From Promethearchaeota archaeon (lineage in GTDB: Archaea > Asgardarchaeota > Lokiarchaeia > Sigyniarchaeales > SOKP01): a DNA stretch of 64,000 nucleotides. A model generated the notes under the pieces. The model saw nothing but the letters and a program-made list of their open reading frames with translations, was not told where the DNA came from and did no database searches. The position numbers and the translations under genes were made by a program. Numbering within the stretch: the first letter of the stretch is position 1; every line of letters begins with the position of its first letter. Location of the stretch: NCBI GenBank assembly GCA_029838195.1, contig JALGVJ010000013.1:1-64000 (forward strand). The letters run 5' to 3'. This document shows positions 2,869 through 20,905 of this stretch, piece by piece.

Positions 2869-3694
2869 GATAATACACTTTTTTAACTAAGTAGTTCATG
2901 TATTTTTATTTAGATTTAAATATAAATCTACCTCCTATCCTATTTAAAGTCTTTTATTAATACCTTTCTAAATGCTTTAAGAAATTCATAAGATCTCATG
3001 GTTTCCTCTAAAAAATAAAAAATGCGATTGCTCACACTTGCGAGATAAGGAGGTGTAATTAGAAAATCTGATGATTTTTTCAAATAAATAGAATGAGAAA
3101 TACACGTGCTCATTTTTATAACACCACATGCTCTCCCTCCCTTTAATTCGCCATGAAATGAATCTTTTACGAGTAATCTTTAAAATAATTCGGAATCTCT
3201 GCGAATAATTCATTTTTATCTGATTATTATTTAAATTTTAAGTTTCAATGGATTAATAATGAAGGCTCATTTCATGTCCATGTTGTATCTCCTATAGAGA
3301 ATGGACGGAAAGAGCATTCATTCCTCAAAAAAATCGTTGGAATTGATTGAATAATGTTTATACATGTTCCTCCTCCGTGGTATATAAAAATAAATTCCTT
3401 ATAAATACCCGACATCTATTTCTCTCCCCTTCTATCCCTCTTTCATTTATTTTCACCCCATTATATTTCTAATTATGAATGATCCCCCTCTCTATCCCTC
3501 ATGTTCCTCCCGTCCTTCTCTAATTCGCATGTTCTTGATCACGTAATGAAATAACTCACTTTCTACATTTTTTTAAAAGGAAAAAAACCTACTTTGATTA
3601 AAATCGGATAAAGAAAATTTAAAATTAAACACTTCATTTACCAAAATATTACTACAAATTCATGAAAAACTACATTTTATGGAATGTTAAAAAC

Positions 3695-5222: not shown

Positions 5223-6653
5223 ATGGCAAATAAAACTGGAATGGAAAGATTAGAAGAACTGAAAGGCCAAATCTTCAAATGTATTCACTGTAAGGCCTGC
5301 AGATTCGCTTATTCAGGAGAACCAAGCCGAAAAGGCATTGGTGAGTATAAGGGTAAACAGAAAACGGTTTTGTATGAAGGAATGGTAGATTCCTGTCCGG
5401 CTGGCATAGAATACGGCTGGGAAGCATTCTGGAATGCTGGAAAAGTCTGGATTGCACGCTCCATATTGAATGGAGATTTGGAGTTCTCTGAAGAGGTTCG
5501 TGATGTAATCATGCCATGCATTACATGCGGGATGTGTTCTGCTCAATGTGAAAACAAGATTCCTACTGTTGATATCATTGAATCACTTCGAGCCGCATGT
5601 ATTGAAGCAGGTGTTCCAATGATTGAAAAACATGAATTAGTAAATAGACTTGTTAAGGAATTGAATAATCCCTATGGTGGCAAGGCAGAGGAACGATTTA
5701 AGTGGGCTAAAGACGCAGGTTTGGAAAAATACATTAACAATAAAGGTGCGAAAATAGGCTATTTTGTGGGTTGTACTGCTTCTTATCGACAAATTGAAGT
5801 GGCTGTAGCAACAGCAAAACTTTTTGAACAATTAGGCATAAATTTCACTTTAATTGAGGAAGAAGTATGCTGTGGAAGTCCTTTTTTTAGAATAGGAGCA
5901 GTAAATACAGCTCAAGAACTGATGAACAAGAATCTTGAATTATTTAAGGGGTTAGATATGGTATATTTTTCGTGTGCTGGGTGTTACAGGACCATAACTA
6001 TTGATTATCCTAAATGGATGCCTGAAGGTGAAAAGCTTCCTTTTAAGACTCAACACGCCTTCGAGCTAATAGCCCGATTAATTCAACAAGAAAAAATAAA
6101 ATTCAAACCTAACAAAGAATTAAAGGGTAAAGTTGTGACTTATCATGATCCGTGCCACACAGGGCGACACTTCGGCATTGATTTTGAACAAGAGCTTATA
6201 AAACAGAGTAAAAATTTAATGTTCGATATGAGAAAAATTACTCAAAAAATTGATGAGTGGTTCGAAATTCCACGAGTTATTCTCAGAAAACTTCAAGAAG
6301 ATGTTGGTATTGTGTTCAAAGAAATGTATCGAATCAAGCTGAATTCCATGTGTTGCGGTGCAGGAGGTGGAGTTCGGGCGGGCTATCCTGATTTCTCCTT
6401 ACGCACGGCAAGCCTTAGATGTGATGAAGCGAATGCAATTGGAGCTGACATTCTCACGACGGAGTGCCCGTTCTGTTGGAGGAATCTTACTGATGCTAAT
6501 GAATTATATGGACATGGCATGAAAGTCATGGGGGTGCTTCAGATGATTACTGAATATGGTTTATTGGATATAGTGGCTTCGCCTTCCGAACAAGATTTCT
6601 TGACACCTTCTATTCGCGAGTTAGAAGAGGAGGGGTCAAAGAAAAAAAAGTGA
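5223..6653 (+). CDS. Fe-S oxidoreductase, GlcF/HdrD-like, with two CCG domains
   Basis: CIHCKAC...CP, CITCGMCSAQC, YFVGC, VCCGSP, YHDPCHTGR, CCGAGGG, ECPFC. Lies 40 nt after the FAD oxidoreductase with a GAGG SD, so probably one operon. Confidence 0.88.
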   Translation: MANKTGMERLEELKGQIFKCIHCKACRFAYSGEPSRKGIGEYKGKQKTVLYEGMVDSCPAGIEYGWEAFWNAGKVWIARSILNGDLEFSEEVRDVIMPCITCGMCSAQCENKIPTVDIIESLRAACIEAGVPMIEKHELVNRLVKELNNPYGGKAEERFKWAKDAGLEKYINNKGAKIGYFVGCTASYRQIEVAVATAKLFEQLGINFTLIEEEVCCGSPFFRIGAVNTAQELMNKNLELFKGLDMVYFSCAGCYRTITIDYPKWMPEGEKLPFKTQHAFELIARLIQQEKIKFKPNKELKGKVVTYHDPCHTGRHFGIDFEQELIKQSKNLMFDMRKITQKIDEWFEIPRVILRKLQEDVGIVFKEMYRIKLNSMCCGAGGGVRAGYPDFSLRTASLRCDEANAIGADILTTECPFCWRNLTDANELYGHGMKVMGVLQMITEYGLLDIVASPSEQDFLTPSIRELEEEGSKKKK

Positions 6654-6860
6654 AAGGGGAAGGCACTTACTAAATCTTTTTTTTTCCTCATTTTTGTTTA
6701 GATATTTTTTCATTTAATCCCGTATTATATTTTTGGTTCAATTGTAAAATAAATTTTCTAATTTAAGAAAACGATTGATTAAAGGTTTTTAGATAATAAT
6801 TAAAACTCGAGGATTCGCATTTCATGAGAAGAAAAGGGATGGGAAGGGGAGAGAGAGAAG

Positions 6861-6878
6861 AAAACAAAATTTTTAAAA
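6861..6878 (+). promoter_or_regulatory. Candidate BRE/TATA box for the leader-leuA transcript
   Basis: A-rich AAAACAAAA followed by TTTTTAAAA (6870-6878), about 55 nt upstream of the leader ATG. The AT-rich background weakens the call. Confidence 0.35.
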
Positions 6879-6931
6879 GGCATGATATTTTATTTAACAC
6901 TAAAGCAATTGTTTTAAAATTGTGGAGAACC

Positions 6932-7051
6932 ATGCCTCAGAGAATAACAATTTTTAAGAGAAGCCTTGTTCTGAGGAAGGATTCTTCGATAAAACGATTG
7001 CTTGGGTCTTTAATCTTATTAAACTCTTTATTATTATTATTATTATTATAA
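6932..7051 (+). CDS. Putative leucine-rich leader peptide of leuA (39 aa)
   Basis: MPQRITIFKRSLVLRKDSSIKRLLGSLILLNSLLLLLLL*; 14/39 Leu; seven tandem TTA codons (7028-7048) then TAA; GGAG at 6924-6927 before the ATG; ends 86 nt before leuA. Confidence 0.7.
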   Translation: MPQRITIFKRSLVLRKDSSIKRLLGSLILLNSLLLLLLL

Positions 7052-7115
7052 CCCCCTCCTTTCGAATTGAGGGCAATATATCTTGTTTGCATGATTCAAG
7101 GGGGGGATTCTTTTT
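7052..7115 (+). promoter_or_regulatory. Putative attenuator: alternative stem-loops plus T-tract
   Basis: CCCTC 7054-7058 can pair with GAGGG 7069-7073, or 7053-7067 can pair with ATTCAAGGGGGGG 7094-7106; followed by TTCTTTTT 7108-7115. Confidence 0.55.
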
Positions 7116-7137
7116 ACACTAAGTGAAATTAAAATAG

Positions 7138-8763
7138 GTGGAAATAGAGGTGGAAGGAAAAAAAGAAATAAATGTTTCGAAAATGATGGAAGTAATCAGG
7201 GAAGAGTTGCTCCTGCCTGAGAAAGCTTACTTTTTCGATACTACGCTTCGGGATGGAGAGCAAACCCCCGGAATAAGTTTTACATTGGAGGAGAAAATTT
7301 CCATTGCCCGTGCGTTGAATGAACTGGGCATTGACGTGATAGAGGCTGGATTTCCGGTGGTTTCTCAAGGAGATTTTGATGCTTGTCGGGAAATTGCCCA
7401 TTTGGGTTTAGATTCCGAGGTCATTGGATTGGCAAGATGCAATATGGTGGATATAGATAAGGTCATTGAAGCCGATATGGATAGCATTCACGTGTTCATT
7501 GCGACCTCGGATTTGCATTTAAAGGAGAAACTTCAGATGACGCGTGAGGAGGTCTTGGAACAGATTGAAAAGACGGTGTCATATGCTAAAGAGCATTACT
7601 CAACCGTGTTATTTTCTGCGGAGGATGCGACTCGTTCCAATTTAGACTTTCTATTAAAAGCCAACAAGCTAGCGGTGAAATGCGGGGCCACGCGCATTAA
7701 TATTCCGGATACTGTTGGAACTATCACGCCGAAAGCGTTCGGATACATCGTTCGCAAGCACCATGAATTCTTGCCAAAAAACGTGCGAATTGCGGTTCAT
7801 TGTCATAATGATTTTGGATTGGCCGTGGCAAATACAATTGCGGGGTTTGAAAATGGAGCATCAGAAGCTCAAACGACCATAATGGGTTTAGGAGAGCGGG
7901 CCGGTAATGCTTCTTTTGAGGAAACAGCCATGTCCTTGTATGCGCTTTATGGCATTCCCATGAACATCAATACTCGAAGAATTTTTCCCACGGCAAAATT
8001 AGTGGAGAGTTATTGTGGTGGAAAGATTAAAATCGGAAGGCTTCAGCCTTTAATTGGGCAAAATGCCTTTGCTCATGAGTCGGGAATTCATGCCCATGCA
8101 ATGATTAAGAATGCTCGCACGTATGAACCCTTATCCCCCGAGTTAATTGGCATCAAGAGATCGGACTCCATGGAGGAGATTGTTCGGCAGTCGATTAAAT
8201 TGGGGAAACATACGGGAGGGCATGCGCTTAAAGCCAAATTAAAGGAATTGGGCGTGAATACTACTGAAGAGCAGTTTAATAAGATAATGACAAACGTCAA
8301 ACGATTTGGCGATAAAGGACATGAAGTATCAGAGGAGGATTTCTTGGCAATCGTGAAAGACGTGTTGGGACAAATACCAGAACAAGAGCAATTTGTTCAT
8401 TTGGAGGAATTAACCGTATTGACGGGTTCGGTGACACCTACAGCGACCGTGAAGTTACAAATTAAAAATAATGGTGAATATATCGAGAAATTGGCTTCTT
8501 CTGTTGGTGTTGGCCCAGTAGATGCGAGCGTCAAAGCAATTGTCAAGTGTTTTGAGCCCATGAGTAAAATCAAACTCTTGGAATATAATATTGAAGCGGT
8601 TACGGGAGGTACGGAGGCTTTAGGACACGTTTCCATTGAATTAATGGACTTAGAAAGCAATCATATCGTGAAATCAAGCGCAACTCATGAAGATATTGTC
8701 ATGTCGTCGGTTTTAGCTCTCTTGAAAGGATTAAACCGGCTTTTAAAAGCAAAAAACAGTTAA
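7138..8763 (+). CDS. leuA: 2-isopropylmalate synthase (LeuA; citramalate synthase not excluded)
   Basis: DTTLRDGEQTPG, EDATRS, PDTVG, HCHNDFG, GLGERAGNA, HESGIH, and a C-terminal regulatory domain with GVGPVDA. Start GTG 7138 or 7150. Confidence 0.85.
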   Translation: MEIEVEGKKEINVSKMMEVIREELLLPEKAYFFDTTLRDGEQTPGISFTLEEKISIARALNELGIDVIEAGFPVVSQGDFDACREIAHLGLDSEVIGLARCNMVDIDKVIEADMDSIHVFIATSDLHLKEKLQMTREEVLEQIEKTVSYAKEHYSTVLFSAEDATRSNLDFLLKANKLAVKCGATRINIPDTVGTITPKAFGYIVRKHHEFLPKNVRIAVHCHNDFGLAVANTIAGFENGASEAQTTIMGLGERAGNASFEETAMSLYALYGIPMNINTRRIFPTAKLVESYCGGKIKIGRLQPLIGQNAFAHESGIHAHAMIKNARTYEPLSPELIGIKRSDSMEEIVRQSIKLGKHTGGHALKAKLKELGVNTTEEQFNKIMTNVKRFGDKGHEVSEEDFLAIVKDVLGQIPEQEQFVHLEELTVLTGSVTPTATVKLQIKNNGEYIEKLASSVGVGPVDASVKAIVKCFEPMSKIKLLEYNIEAVTGGTEALGHVSIELMDLESNHIVKSSATHEDIVMSSVLALLKGLNRLLKAKNS

Positions 8764-9953
8764 ATTGATTTTTTTAAAAAATCTTCTAAATAATTATACG
8801 CCGTTTCTAAGGTTGGTAAATCGGGTAAAAACGTAAAACGCACGTGTTTTTTACCGTAAAATCCAAATCCAGAACCATATACGGCGCAAACGCCCGTATA
8901 TTTTAAAAGATCAATTACAAATTCTTTATCATTTTTCCATTTTTTAAATTCTTCGAGCTCGATTCGAGGAAATAAATAAAACGTGCCCTCAGCATTAATG
9001 CAATGAAATCCCTCCATTTGTCGTAATCGTTTGTATGAATAATCCCTGCGTTCCTTCAACTTACGAACCATACTCTTAGTATGGGGTCCAGGATTCTTCA
9101 AGGCTTCGATAGCGGCGAATTGAGCATTAGAATTTGCACACAAACGAGAGCGGGCGATTTTTTCAATCCCTTCTTTTAATTCTTTTAATTTCCCATAGGG
9201 GTCATGAAAGTACATGTAGCCTAATCTCCAGCCCGTAGCCATGTGGGCTTTGGAAAAACCATTTAATCCGATGAGGGGAATATCTTTAGATAAAGTAGCA
9301 GGGCACGTATATTCTTTTTCAAAAACGATTTGGTCGTAGATTTCGTCCGATAACACGATTAAGTCATGCTCTCCCGCAAGATCTAAAATCTCTCGAATGC
9401 TTTTTTTATCATATATCACGCCCGTGGGATTGTTAGGAGAGCTGATTAATATGGCTTGGGTTTTTGGAGTAATTTTTTTTCTTAAATCTTCAATATTGGG
9501 AGACCAATCGTTTTCTTCTTCTAATTGGTATTCTACAGGCACGCCGTCAAAAAACCGAGAATAATTTATGTAAAGAGGATAACTCGGTCCGGGAATGAGA
9601 AGTTCGTTTCCATTTTCCAGCAAGCTAGCAAGAATGAAAAAAATCCCTTCTGTCACTCCGGCTGTTATTAAAATATCATCGGGTTCCAAGTTAATGGAAT
9701 TTTTCTCATTTTCATGCTTGCATACTTCTTCTCTAAGTTCTCTCACGCCCAAGCTATCGACATAATAATTTTGTCCGGAAAACGTGGAATCTGATAAAGC
9801 CTGGGAAATATATTTTGGCGTGTCAAAATCATACCTGGCAGGGTCTCCAATATTCATGTGAATGATTTTTTTTCCACTTTTTTCCACTTGCTCCGCGACC
9901 ACGGCGATGTCTCTAATAGCATATTCTAAATCTTTAACTCTTCTTGAAACCAT
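8760..9953 (-). CDS. Class I/II PLP aminotransferase (alanine aminotransferase-like)
   Basis: EYAIRD, NIGDP, PNNPTG, SDEIYD, GFSKAHMATGWRLG. Shares the TTAA stop region with convergent leuA. Confidence 0.9.
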   Translation of the reverse strand: MVSRRVKDLEYAIRDIAVVAEQVEKSGKKIIHMNIGDPARYDFDTPKYISQALSDSTFSGQNYYVDSLGVRELREEVCKHENEKNSINLEPDDILITAGVTEGIFFILASLLENGNELLIPGPSYPLYINYSRFFDGVPVEYQLEEENDWSPNIEDLRKKITPKTQAILISSPNNPTGVIYDKKSIREILDLAGEHDLIVLSDEIYDQIVFEKEYTCPATLSKDIPLIGLNGFSKAHMATGWRLGYMYFHDPYGKLKELKEGIEKIARSRLCANSNAQFAAIEALKNPGPHTKSMVRKLKERRDYSYKRLRQMEGFHCINAEGTFYLFPRIELEEFKKWKNDKEFVIDLLKYTGVCAVYGSGFGFYGKKHVRFTFLPDLPTLETAYNYLEDFLKKSI

Positions 9954-20119: not shown

Positions 20120-20905
20120 TCAACCATTATCTTTTTCTAACTTTGTATAGGTAAGTTTCCCTATCACCCATGCTAAACTCACGCCTGTAATTTCATCTAT
20201 AATATAATGCTGTTTCACGAAAAGCGTCGATAATACAACTCCAATCGCAATAATGATATTAATTATAGCCCATATTTTAAACTTCTTTGAATTATCTATT
20301 TTATAATTTTGATACCAAGCGAAAGCTAAAATTACAGAAACGGCAGCGTGAAGACTGGGAAAACAATTAAAAGAAGTATCGGTTCTATAATATCCATACA
20401 TTATTTTGGCCCAAAAATTTTCTTTATAAACATCCTCAATGGCAAACAGCTCAATTCTCCACCAATACGTTGATACCGGAAAAAAGATATAAACTATTAA
20501 TGAAATTGCACCAATGAAAATTAAAGACCATGCTAACGGGTATCCTTTCTTTGGAGCTATAAAAACAAAATAAATAAAAGAATAACCAATCATGGTAAAA
20601 AATAAAAAGACGTAAAAAATCGCCATTTCAGGAACAAAAGGGATGAGATTATCTAAGGGTCCAAAAACATGATCTAACCGATATCCCTCTCCTTCTGAAT
20701 AGAGGGCCCCCGTCCAAACATATCCGACCCTCATGATCAAACCAATAAAAATTAAAAGAGATAAAATTAGATTCAACGTCATGTACGCTAACTTTTCGGA
20801 AATTGGAGATGTTTTTCCCTTAAAAAAAACTTTCTCTAAGAAGGTTTGGAATTTTTTAACCAAAGAAATAAATAGCACCATTTTTTTGATTTTTCTACGG
20901 ATCAA
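20120..20905 (-). CDS. PAP2-superfamily membrane protein (AUR1/IPC-synthase-like motifs)
   Basis: NCFPSLHAA and KQHYIIDEITG motifs; about 6 TM segments. Confidence 0.75.
   Translation of the reverse strand: MIRRKIKKMVLFISLVKKFQTFLEKVFFKGKTSPISEKLAYMTLNLILSLLIFIGLIMRVGYVWTGALYSEGEGYRLDHVFGPLDNLIPFVPEMAIFYVFLFFTMIGYSFIYFVFIAPKKGYPLAWSLIFIGAISLIVYIFFPVSTYWWRIELFAIEDVYKENFWAKIMYGYYRTDTSFNCFPSLHAAVSVILAFAWYQNYKIDNSKKFKIWAIINIIIAIGVVLSTLFVKQHYIIDEITGVSLAWVIGKLTYTKLEKDNG

Follow-up and report, generated by a model that had tools for sequence, protein, structure and literature searches.

What does a short, leucine-rich open reading frame (ORF) do directly in front of an archaeal gene for leucine biosynthesis? 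The question is raised by a stretch of 64,000 nucleotides (nt) of Promethearchaeota archaeon (assembly GCA_029838195.1, contig JALGVJ010000013.1, positions 1-64,000 of the forward strand), hereafter called the window, in which leuA, the gene for 2-isopropylmalate synthase, is preceded by a leader ORF that ends in a run of Leu codons and is followed, almost immediately past its stop, by a long hairpin (Table 1). Leader-peptide attenuation is a textbook mechanism of bacteria, which needs coupled transcription and translation as well as hairpin-dependent terminators. For this archaeal DNA, the original prediction was nevertheless that of an upstream ORF (uORF) sensing Leu-tRNA and tied to leuA, and this proposal is supported by the Leu-rich uORFs found in front of orthologous genes, by the synonymous variation of their Leu codons and by the maintenance of the stem. 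On the basis of comparative sequence analysis, it is considered highly probable (about 0.85) that the element senses Leu through the ribosome and controls leuA in cis, because the leader is conserved together with its hairpin and because Ile- and Trp-rich leaders stand in front of the cognate genes of the same genome.

A leucine-rich leader in front of leuA

Judged by its profile and domain matches, the gene behind the leader codes for a LeuA-type enzyme and not for a citramalate or homocitrate synthase. Its product is recognized by the NCBIfam model NF002085 (591 bits, cut-off 517), whereas it reaches only 233 bits against the citramalate synthase model TIGR00977 (cut-off 450), and its domains are HMGL-like, HCS_D2 and LeuA_dimer, the last of these with 103 bits. 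Genes of the LeuB, LeuC and LeuD types are present elsewhere in the same genome, which measures 4.5 Mb and contains 33.5% G+C.

In the leader itself, 12 of the 14 Leu fall within the last 17 codons. The TATA-like box, the GGAG motif, the ORF, the (TTA)7 run, the two folds past the stop, the tract behind them and the stem inside the leader were all recovered in the sequence where the original prediction had placed them. When the upstream regions of 3,496 long ORFs were scanned genome-wide, only eight uORFs starting with ATG were found to have at least five Leu in their last eight codons; the leuA leader is the only one of these with seven out of eight, and the fold downstream of it reaches -21.7 kcal/mol, compared to -7.7 kcal/mol or weaker for the other seven.

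LeuA orthologues were searched for in 40 relatives, and one genome per species was then scanned for further loci; the record titles of the added loci read Promethearchaeota or Promethearchaeia, i.e. Asgard, which fits the Asgard-like host that had been anticipated. The genomes compared are related and do not represent independent samples, and all family counts given here are to be read in that light. A Leu-rich frame precedes leuA in 19 of the 20 closest orthologues, down to 65% protein identity and across two families of one order, and in those 19 its end lies 115-135 nt before the conserved Met-Met of LeuA. The total number of distinct leaders at leuA amounts to 51, with a length of 26-42 codons (median 36), to which can be added two further leuA loci with a Leu-rich frame lacking an ATG in range, one locus with a weaker version of the leader and one broken by an assembly gap. 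Four G+C-richer genomes of the same order, which are more distant, showed no such leader, and neither did another genome from the second family.

The composition of these leaders is strongly skewed, Leu accounting for 36% of their residues versus 10.4% in the proteins of the genome. The last six codons of the 51 leaders are 88% Leu, with all six Leu codons in use, and each leader has 7-13 Leu codons among its last 17; TTA makes up 75% of the Leu codons in the terminal run, versus 46% in the genes of the genome. The two alternative frames over the leader stretches are open in 0 and 2 of the 51 cases, respectively. The tail is free to vary in length and in sequence apart from its Leu, and the leader stays linked to leuA while the upstream neighbour changes, any one upstream gene being common to only two or three loci. 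Besides, some non-Leu positions are partly conserved, namely an N-terminal M-K-x-L-Q and a mid-peptide S-L-G/E-L-L/C-L (loci L042-L094, e.g. L054, L058, L069 and L074), which hints at a constraint beyond Leu content, imposed by the nascent peptide or by the RNA. As for the stem that had been noticed inside the leader, CCTCAGA (6935-41) and TCTGAGG (6970-76) are exactly complementary in the window, but this does not extend to a general feature, since the sequence is not kept in the closest relative, the genus mate.

Could the ORF have arisen by chance, from a TTA microsatellite in AT-rich spacer DNA? The (TTA)7 run is a perfect microsatellite and the sole perfect period-3 array in the 64-kb window. 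In addition, a low-depth metagenome contig (depth 4) covering 6994-7250 has six fewer letters and is otherwise identical, the repeat 7021-7061 being flagged, and this difference may reflect another population in which the run has five TTA units and not seven, still in frame, or an assembly error. The Leu tails of the relatives, however, use mixed codons without any microsatellite, and both the frame and the hairpin are conserved, so that an origin of this kind is refuted as a sufficient explanation and retains a negligible probability. From the sequence comparisons, the ensemble of leader and hairpin is judged not to be due to chance, because it is an outlier genome-wide, recurs as 51 orthologous leaders and has closed alternative frames.

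A conserved hairpin past the leader stop

In the window, the basal stem of the hairpin is formed by a C/U-rich 5' arm paired with seven G at 7100-7106, and the pairing of 7053-7067 with 7094-7106 is the minimum-energy fold (minimum free energy of -21.7 kcal/mol). Taken alone, this hairpin is modestly unusual (z -2.38, three of 200 shuffles folding as well); in the first 19 orthologues, the z values range from -2.4 to -5.6 against dinucleotide shuffles, and 13 of the 19 are matched by none of 200 shuffles. A hairpin is present in 52 of 52 loci, where it starts 0-6 nt (median 2) past the leader stop and spans 40-61 nt (median 55), and in most loci 34-41 nt separate its end from the leuA start. 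While its sequence is barely conserved, with a mean column identity of about 52% and almost no invariant positions, its base composition is markedly asymmetric: the basal 5' arm contains 16% purines versus 84% in the partner arm (49 of 52 loci). G-U pairs represent 11% of the hairpin pairs and the sense strand is more stable than the antisense strand in 44 of the 52 loci, which places the signal at the RNA level. On the same two grounds, a DNA palindrome for a dimeric regulator is unlikely.

Pairs were counted in an alignment of 20 sequences obtained by a stricter re-search, which is fitted to the model and leans towards structure. In this model-fitted alignment, 81% of the cells pair and nine of 13 pairs are changed on both sides, and its covariation score of 0.312 compares with a shuffle mean of 0.217 (0 of 500 as high) and with 0.12-0.23 for slid controls. 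The pairwise compensatory count between nearest-neighbour hairpins is modest, pairing being kept in 51% of double changes and in 44% of single changes versus 26-36% in slid controls, and is not leaned on here. A covariance model derived from plain alignments had its basal stem partly out of register and gave reverse-strand hits, and it was not used for the counts. Finally, an Rfam cmscan of positions 6500-7500 (E up to 10) returned only chance-level, unrelated matches far below the gathering scores, and the Leu_leader family RF00512 was not matched.

Isoleucine and tryptophan leaders in the same genome

The original prediction had suggested looking for cognate leaders at other amino-acid genes, and two were indeed found, one for Ile before citramalate synthase and one for Trp before trpB2. 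They come out of an unbiased ranking of the 4,784 uORFs of the genome by enrichment for any one residue. The first rank is held by a 24-codon Ile-rich leader (12 of 17 Ile; contig C53, about 20165-20239, plus strand) located 101 nt before a citramalate synthase gene, a paralogue of leuA (C53:20341-21951; TIGR00977, 687 bits). Citramalate synthase is the first enzyme of the pyruvate route to isoleucine. The stop of this leader is followed at once by a hairpin and then by TTTTCTTTT, and its last codons, TTAAAATTC, can pair over 9 bp with the hairpin 5' arm GAATTTTAA, which corresponds to the classical 1:2 / 2:3 arrangement. Apart from this genome, 13 relatives of the same family were examined, of which 11 have the Ile leader with its hairpin, one is without it and one has too short a contig; the second family contributes three more genomes with the leader. 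Across these cimA loci, the hairpins are not purine-rich and mostly start 8-11 nt past the stop.

The fourth rank goes to a Trp leader with four TGG among its last eight codons (contig C38, about 2967-3017, minus strand), 174 nt before a TrpB2-type gene (C38:1380-2792, minus strand). It is followed by hairpins and two T5 runs, and tails of the form W-x-W-x-W occur in about 20 of 30 related trpB2 loci. In this genome, T-runs thus lie behind the hairpins of all three leaders, those of leuA, cimA and trpB2. The fact that three amino acids each match a gene of their own pathway constitutes the strongest argument for considering that these ORFs are read as gauges and not kept for their peptides.

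This pattern bears on two other explanations of the leuA locus. According to the first, the ORF would code for a small Leu-rich, hydrophobic protein that serves a separate purpose and whose mRNA ends at the hairpin, leuA being expressed independently. The conserved non-Leu positions (M-K-x-L-Q and S-L-G/E-L) and a tail resembling a membrane helix would suit such a protein. Nevertheless, the 34-41 nt between hairpin and leuA are too short for a promoter and a leader with a Shine-Dalgarno (SD) sequence, the linkage to leuA persists although upstream neighbours change, the tail varies freely except for Leu, the peptide has no Pfam match, and comparable mini-ORFs rich in Ile or Trp stand in front of genes of the Ile and Trp pathways; a protein with a separate function is accordingly seen as very unlikely. 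According to the second, leuA would be controlled through a structured 5' untranslated region (UTR) bound by a protein or a metabolite, for instance an Lrp-type or ACT-domain regulator, and the ORF would be incidental. This would agree with the hairpin being the most strongly conserved structure, as well as with the two conserved AT-rich boxes upstream, which could be regulator sites. Yet the hairpin offers no conserved unpaired nucleotides and almost no invariant positions, no Rfam family matches, the frame and its Leu content are conserved against expectation, and the cognate-residue pattern over three genes favours translation-based sensing, leaving a bound UTR with very little probability.

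Other leader-like uORFs were encountered as well. The second rank of the same list is a Thr/Ala-rich uORF of 24 codons (seven of 12 Thr in its best window), 129 nt before a gene for 320 amino acids (C93:14707-15669, minus strand); this gene has no NCBIfam match and no convincing hairpin follows the uORF. Outside the Asgard archaea, five leuA loci of Altiarchaeota/Altiarchaeales (L103, L107, L112, L114 and L117) have uORFs ending in five or six Leu flanked by Arg, with a tail like L-L-L-L-L-R-L-R-A/E after G-N-P, 89-187 nt upstream of leuA, and these apparently form an independent Leu leader family in an unrelated phylum. In addition, three metagenome-assembled genomes of the Euryarchaeota RBG type (L110, L113 and L115) show short Leu-tailed frames, such as P-L-L-L-T-L-R-L-L, 90-105 nt before leuA, and behind these frames lie very stable folds of -24 to -29 kcal/mol.

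How the leader could be read out

In the bacterial scheme, the position of the ribosome would be converted into a choice between two structures, one of them a terminator. At the leuA loci, the hairpin arms have no partner beyond shuffles in the leader, in the spacer or in the start of leuA, the 5' arm having been compared with the 5' part of the leader and with the downstream sequence and the 3' arm with the downstream sequence, and no pairing above shuffles was detected between the last 30 nt of the ORF and the 5' half of the hairpin. Two mutually exclusive folds had been proposed for the window, the smaller one pairing CCCTC (7054-58) with GAGGG (7069-73). As a general feature, this is not supported: the 5' arm can form a local hairpin with purines close by, at -4 kcal/mol or below, in 38 of 52 loci, but this fold is statistically weak, with a median z of -1.16, and no significant partner outside the hairpin was found. 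A layout of the leuL type had also been put forward, and as a family feature it does not hold: T-runs of at least four within 15 nt past the hairpin occur in 15% of the loci versus 26% of background windows, and those of at least five in 4% versus 13%. With neither a significant alternative partner nor a conserved U-tract, a built-in terminator is therefore excluded for the family and a trans-acting step is left. The original prediction had warned that the switch might not follow the enterobacterial logic, and rightly so.

Side by side with these family-wide results, a subgroup of loci (L042, L043, L045, L046 and L049) has leader codons TTAGATCT complementary to AGATCTGA in the 5' half of the hairpin; with z values of about -1.3 to -1.8, this may be an additional pairing specific to that lineage. 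Stop readthrough or frameshifting into leuA was considered too and rejected, the two ORFs being in different frames (218 nt apart) with a spacing that varies among loci.

At least in this genus, could the locus still work as a classical kinetic attenuator? In such a case, the long hairpin and UUCUUUUU would be an intrinsic terminator, and the small early hairpin an antiterminator that is lost whenever a ribosome strips it. The window does contain the two folds as well as a T5 run, the genus mate keeps the small hairpin, a local 5'-arm hairpin of -4 kcal/mol or below is found in 38 of 52 loci, T-runs also lie behind the cimA and trpB2 leader hairpins of this genome, and the cimA leader has the 9-bp 1:2 / 2:3 arrangement. 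However, besides the family-wide scarcity of T-runs given above, the genus mate has only TTT past its hairpin, a simple terminator scan of the window gave no hits, and the small hairpin, whose z is weak, is about 15 kcal/mol weaker than the long one and should be displaced once the upper stem is transcribed. To our knowledge, moreover, hairpin-dependent termination is not established for the archaeal RNA polymerase. Taken together, these points make a classical attenuator rather improbable, even for this genus.

The read-out that is favoured for the Leu sensor is instead one in which the closed hairpin corresponds to the ON state and the OFF state depends on a factor. When charged tRNA-Leu is scarce, the leading ribosome would fall behind on the Leu codons while still 10-50 nt away from the stop, and the hairpin would fold once transcribed; because the Leu codons are spread over the last 17, starved ribosomes should halt before touching it. 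When Leu is plentiful, the ribosome would run to the stop, where, with the stop codon in the A site, its front edge would cover the first 9 nt or so past the stop, i.e. the basal 5' arm, and the purine-rich 3' arm would stay unpaired while the RNA polymerase crosses the untranslated gap of about 100 nt. The closed hairpin would then behave like an antiterminator, protecting the gap so that leuA is made, while the open state would expose the gap to factor-dependent termination or cleavage, for which aCPSF1/FttA is a candidate, or to decay, and leuA would be turned down. The hairpin base lies within reach of a ribosome at the stop (offset 0-6 nt), a geometry that fits factor-dependent attenuation. 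The combination of the sensor with this particular read-out is proposed on the strength of the observed anatomy and its conservation, the response to Leu and its transmission being deduced from them, and it is held with a confidence that stays somewhat below even odds.

Several points weigh against this reading. A ribosome that terminates stands at the stop only briefly, so that the kinetic window may be small. In almost every locus, the Leu run reaches right up to the stop, which a closed hairpin as ON state does not require and which would fit a stalled ribosome that itself opens the hairpin. The contrast between a pyrimidine 5' arm and a purine 3' arm (16% versus 84% purines) is likewise left unexplained by it, and most cimA hairpins, with their start 8-11 nt past the stop, are barely reachable by a ribosome at the stop. 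As far as the structure is concerned, plain MAFFT alignments of the post-stop region gave no RNAalifold consensus fold, because the hairpin arms are out of register, and the alignment behind the pair counts is the one, mentioned above, that favours pairing by construction. In the end, promoter use, transcript boundaries and translation of the leader ORF are features that we infer from the sequence.

Some of these points would be accommodated by translational attenuation of the cat/ermC kind, which shares the sensor but acts post-transcriptionally and with the opposite sign, the open state being ON. In such a mechanism, a Leu-starved ribosome on the terminal Leu run would open the hairpin base, the purine-rich 3' arm and the A-rich spacer would serve as a landing or standby site for the 30S subunit, and leuA translation would go up. 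The position of the Leu run, which abuts the stop (last six codons 88% Leu) with the hairpin 0-6 nt further, speaks in its favour, as do the 84% purine content of the GGAGG-like 3' arm in a genome using GGAGGTGA-type SD sequences, the constant distance of about 34-41 nt from the hairpin to the leuA start, and the existence of precedents with C-terminal codon runs and a translational read-out, e.g. the mycobacterial poly-Cys small ORF (sORF) (bioRxiv 10.1101/834739). Nevertheless, no start codon is close to the 3' arm, and the stem would be opened further by a ribosome at the stop than by one still on the final Leu codons, resulting in a small dynamic range. Ribosomes were modelled with footprints assumed on the basis of bacterial and general values; whether placed on the stop, on the final Leu or six codons upstream, they have a small and inconsistent effect on how accessible the leuA SD is predicted to be, and masking of this SD was rejected on that account. 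Pairing of the Leu run with the leuA ribosome-binding site, in the manner of the LEU element or of the poly-Cys sORF, was rejected as well, being no better than in shuffles (median z +0.29, 0 of 52 below -2). Finally, the cimA hairpins are not purine-rich and mostly lie 8-11 nt past the stop. A translational read-out of this type is hence regarded as unlikely, although it has more in its favour than the explanations by a separate protein or a bound UTR.

Returning to the closed hairpin as ON state, an architecture without the bacterial terminator implies that the read-out must use archaeal machinery, be it factor-dependent termination, decay or control of initiation. By extension, and more tentatively still, Asgard archaea could have their own class of leader-peptide attenuators for Leu, Ile and Trp, without a terminator and with a single hairpin, in which the distance between ribosome and polymerase would decide on the closure of the hairpin, and a eukaryote-like factor of the CPSF73 type (aCPSF1/FttA) or decay would accordingly abort the transcript or not; a class of this breadth is a speculative proposal at present, rather unlikely to be correct in all its parts.

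Promoter region, translation signals and neighbouring genes

Two AT-rich boxes precede the leader at conserved positions. Box 1, which includes the TATA-like box TTTTTAAAA at 6870-6878, takes the form AAAWTTTTTAA and, at most of the 52 loci, sits some 60 nt before the leader ATG (the -60 bin contains 44 motif hits), and box 2, as TTTTATAATTAAC or TTTTATAAAATAC, sits about 35 nt before it (30 hits in the -35 bin, same 52 loci). One of the two is presumably the TATA box. Box 2 could be a second TATA-like box, giving a near-leaderless leader mRNA, or the site of a regulator; the leader mRNA may thus have a 5' UTR of 30 nt or be nearly leaderless, both being compatible with the two boxes.

SD-like 4-mers are found at -16 to -4 of the leader ATG in 30 of the 52 loci. 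For leuA, the GTG at 7150 is probably the start codon, since the aligned orthologues open with ATG at the equivalent place, and AAATAGGT-like motifs lie 8-10 nt 5' of the start codon in these orthologues. The 16S rRNA gene, from which the anti-SD would be read, was not found in this assembly, and SD usage was deduced from the motifs over-represented ahead of gene starts in the genome: AGGTG and GAGGT are among them, and AGGAG, GAGGT and GGTGA show a 6- to 10-fold enrichment.

Upstream, the nearest gene codes for an Fe-S/CCG protein (5223-6653) and ends 280 nt short of the leader ATG. A T9 and then a T5 run follow just past its stop, at 6676-6688, and are probably the termination signal of that gene, well apart from the leuA leader; for this reason, the idea that the post-leader hairpin could be the terminator of the upstream gene was rejected. 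Downstream, an alanine aminotransferase gene (8760-9953) lies on the minus strand, and leuA is thus expected to be monocistronic because the next gene sits on the opposite strand.

Table 1. Features of the leuA leader region, in coordinates of the window
Feature	Position	Strand	Basis or remark
AT-rich box 1 (AAAATTTTTAAAAGG), candidate B recognition element (BRE)/TATA of the leader transcript	6866..6880	+	conserved position; putative promoter role
AT-rich box 2 (TTTTATTTAAC-like)	6886..6901	+	conserved position, about -35
SD-like GGAG of the leader ORF	6924..6927	+	sequence
Leader ORF of 39 codons with 14 Leu; the final seven codons before TAA are Leu	6932..7051	+	ATG 6932, TAA 7049-7051
Terminal Leu run (TTA)7, proposed sensing codons	7028..7048	+	sequence
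Conserved extended hairpin, 54 nt	7053..7106	+	pyrimidine-rich 5' arm from 1 nt past the stop; G-rich 3' arm 7100-7106
TTCTTTTT tract behind the hairpin; possibly a termination signal of the U-tract kind, confined to this genome	7108..7115	+	sequence
Conserved AAAATAGGT, SD region of leuA	7131..7139	+	orthologue alignment
leuA (2-isopropylmalate synthase)	7150..8763	+	probable start GTG 7150; profile and domain matches

Significance and comparison with known systems

In the full-text literature searched, whose coverage is incomplete, no archaeal leader-peptide attenuator and no link between Asgard archaea and regulatory uORFs was found. The sensing principle is a known one; what is new is the domain of life and the architecture without a terminator. 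The implication would be that archaea, too, use the speed of translation as a gauge of amino-acid supply. If the Asgard class of attenuators proposed above is real, archaea would have their first described case of attenuation mediated by the ribosome, and the coupling of transcription and translation would become directly accessible in the prokaryotes most closely related to eukaryotes. The element itself offers a compact and mutable reporter for ribosome-polymerase coupling and termination in archaea, and a marker of Asgard lineages that make their own Leu, Ile and Trp. It also calls for caution with annotation pipelines that ignore ORFs of 30-40 codons.

By its function, the element is akin to bacterial leader-peptide attenuators such as the enterobacterial leaders (leuL, Rfam RF00512, but also trpL, hisL, pheL and ilvL), in which a short ORF rich in codons for the end product likewise lies between the promoter and the first biosynthetic gene, and several amino acids have cognate leaders in one genome. 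Segment 2 of the E. coli trp leader sits just behind the leader stop, and the 5' arm of the stem described here is placed in the same way, a few nt past the stop, so that the geometry of the hairpin is that of the 2:3 antiterminator of classical attenuators. In contrast to these systems, the host is an archaeon, there is no Rfam match, a single hairpin is conserved without a 3:4 terminator or a conserved U-tract, there is no significant alternative partner, and the Leu run stands at the very end of the ORF and not in segment 1. In the absence of alternative structures, of an intrinsic terminator and of homology in sequence or structure, the element should not be filed in the leuL/Leu_leader family.

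The factor-dependent attenuators governed by leader translation, such as tnaC-tnaA (with Rho) and the mgtA and corA leaders, offer a second comparison. As in these cases, the position of the ribosome near the leader stop would decide on the exposure of the RNA to a termination factor, with no intrinsic terminator involved, but the likeness is one of logic only: archaea are devoid of Rho, in contrast to the tnaC-tnaA setting, and the candidate factor here is the CPSF73-type aCPSF1/FttA. With the cat/ermC leaders, the element shares a single hairpin beside the leader ORF, whose SD-like 3' arm could be unmasked by a stalled ribosome; there, however, the start codon directly follows the unmasked SD, whereas leuA starts about 37 nt further and has an SD of its own.

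Two further bacterial elements share the spacing or the target gene. One is the mycobacterial poly-Cys leaderless sORF Ms5788A, whose codon run base-pairs with the downstream SD (bioRxiv 10.1101/834739). Ms5788A and the leuA leader are similar in that both combine an sORF of about 30 codons, sensing codons at its 3' end, an untranslated spacer of about 100 nt and the lack of a terminator, the leuA leader mRNA being perhaps near-leaderless as well, but they differ in that the pairing between codon run and SD is at chance level here and that the leuA SD stays about equally accessible in the folds. The other, the actinobacterial LEU element, also located upstream of leuA, is a pseudoknot in which Leu codons and the leuA SD together form the base stem; those who described it were doubtful about sensing through translation (PMC1262725). 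A Leu-rich candidate leader peptide, a conserved RNA structure upstream of leuA and no obvious terminator are common to the LEU element and to the Asgard one, while the latter has a simple hairpin past the stop and a Leu run that is not paired with the SD.

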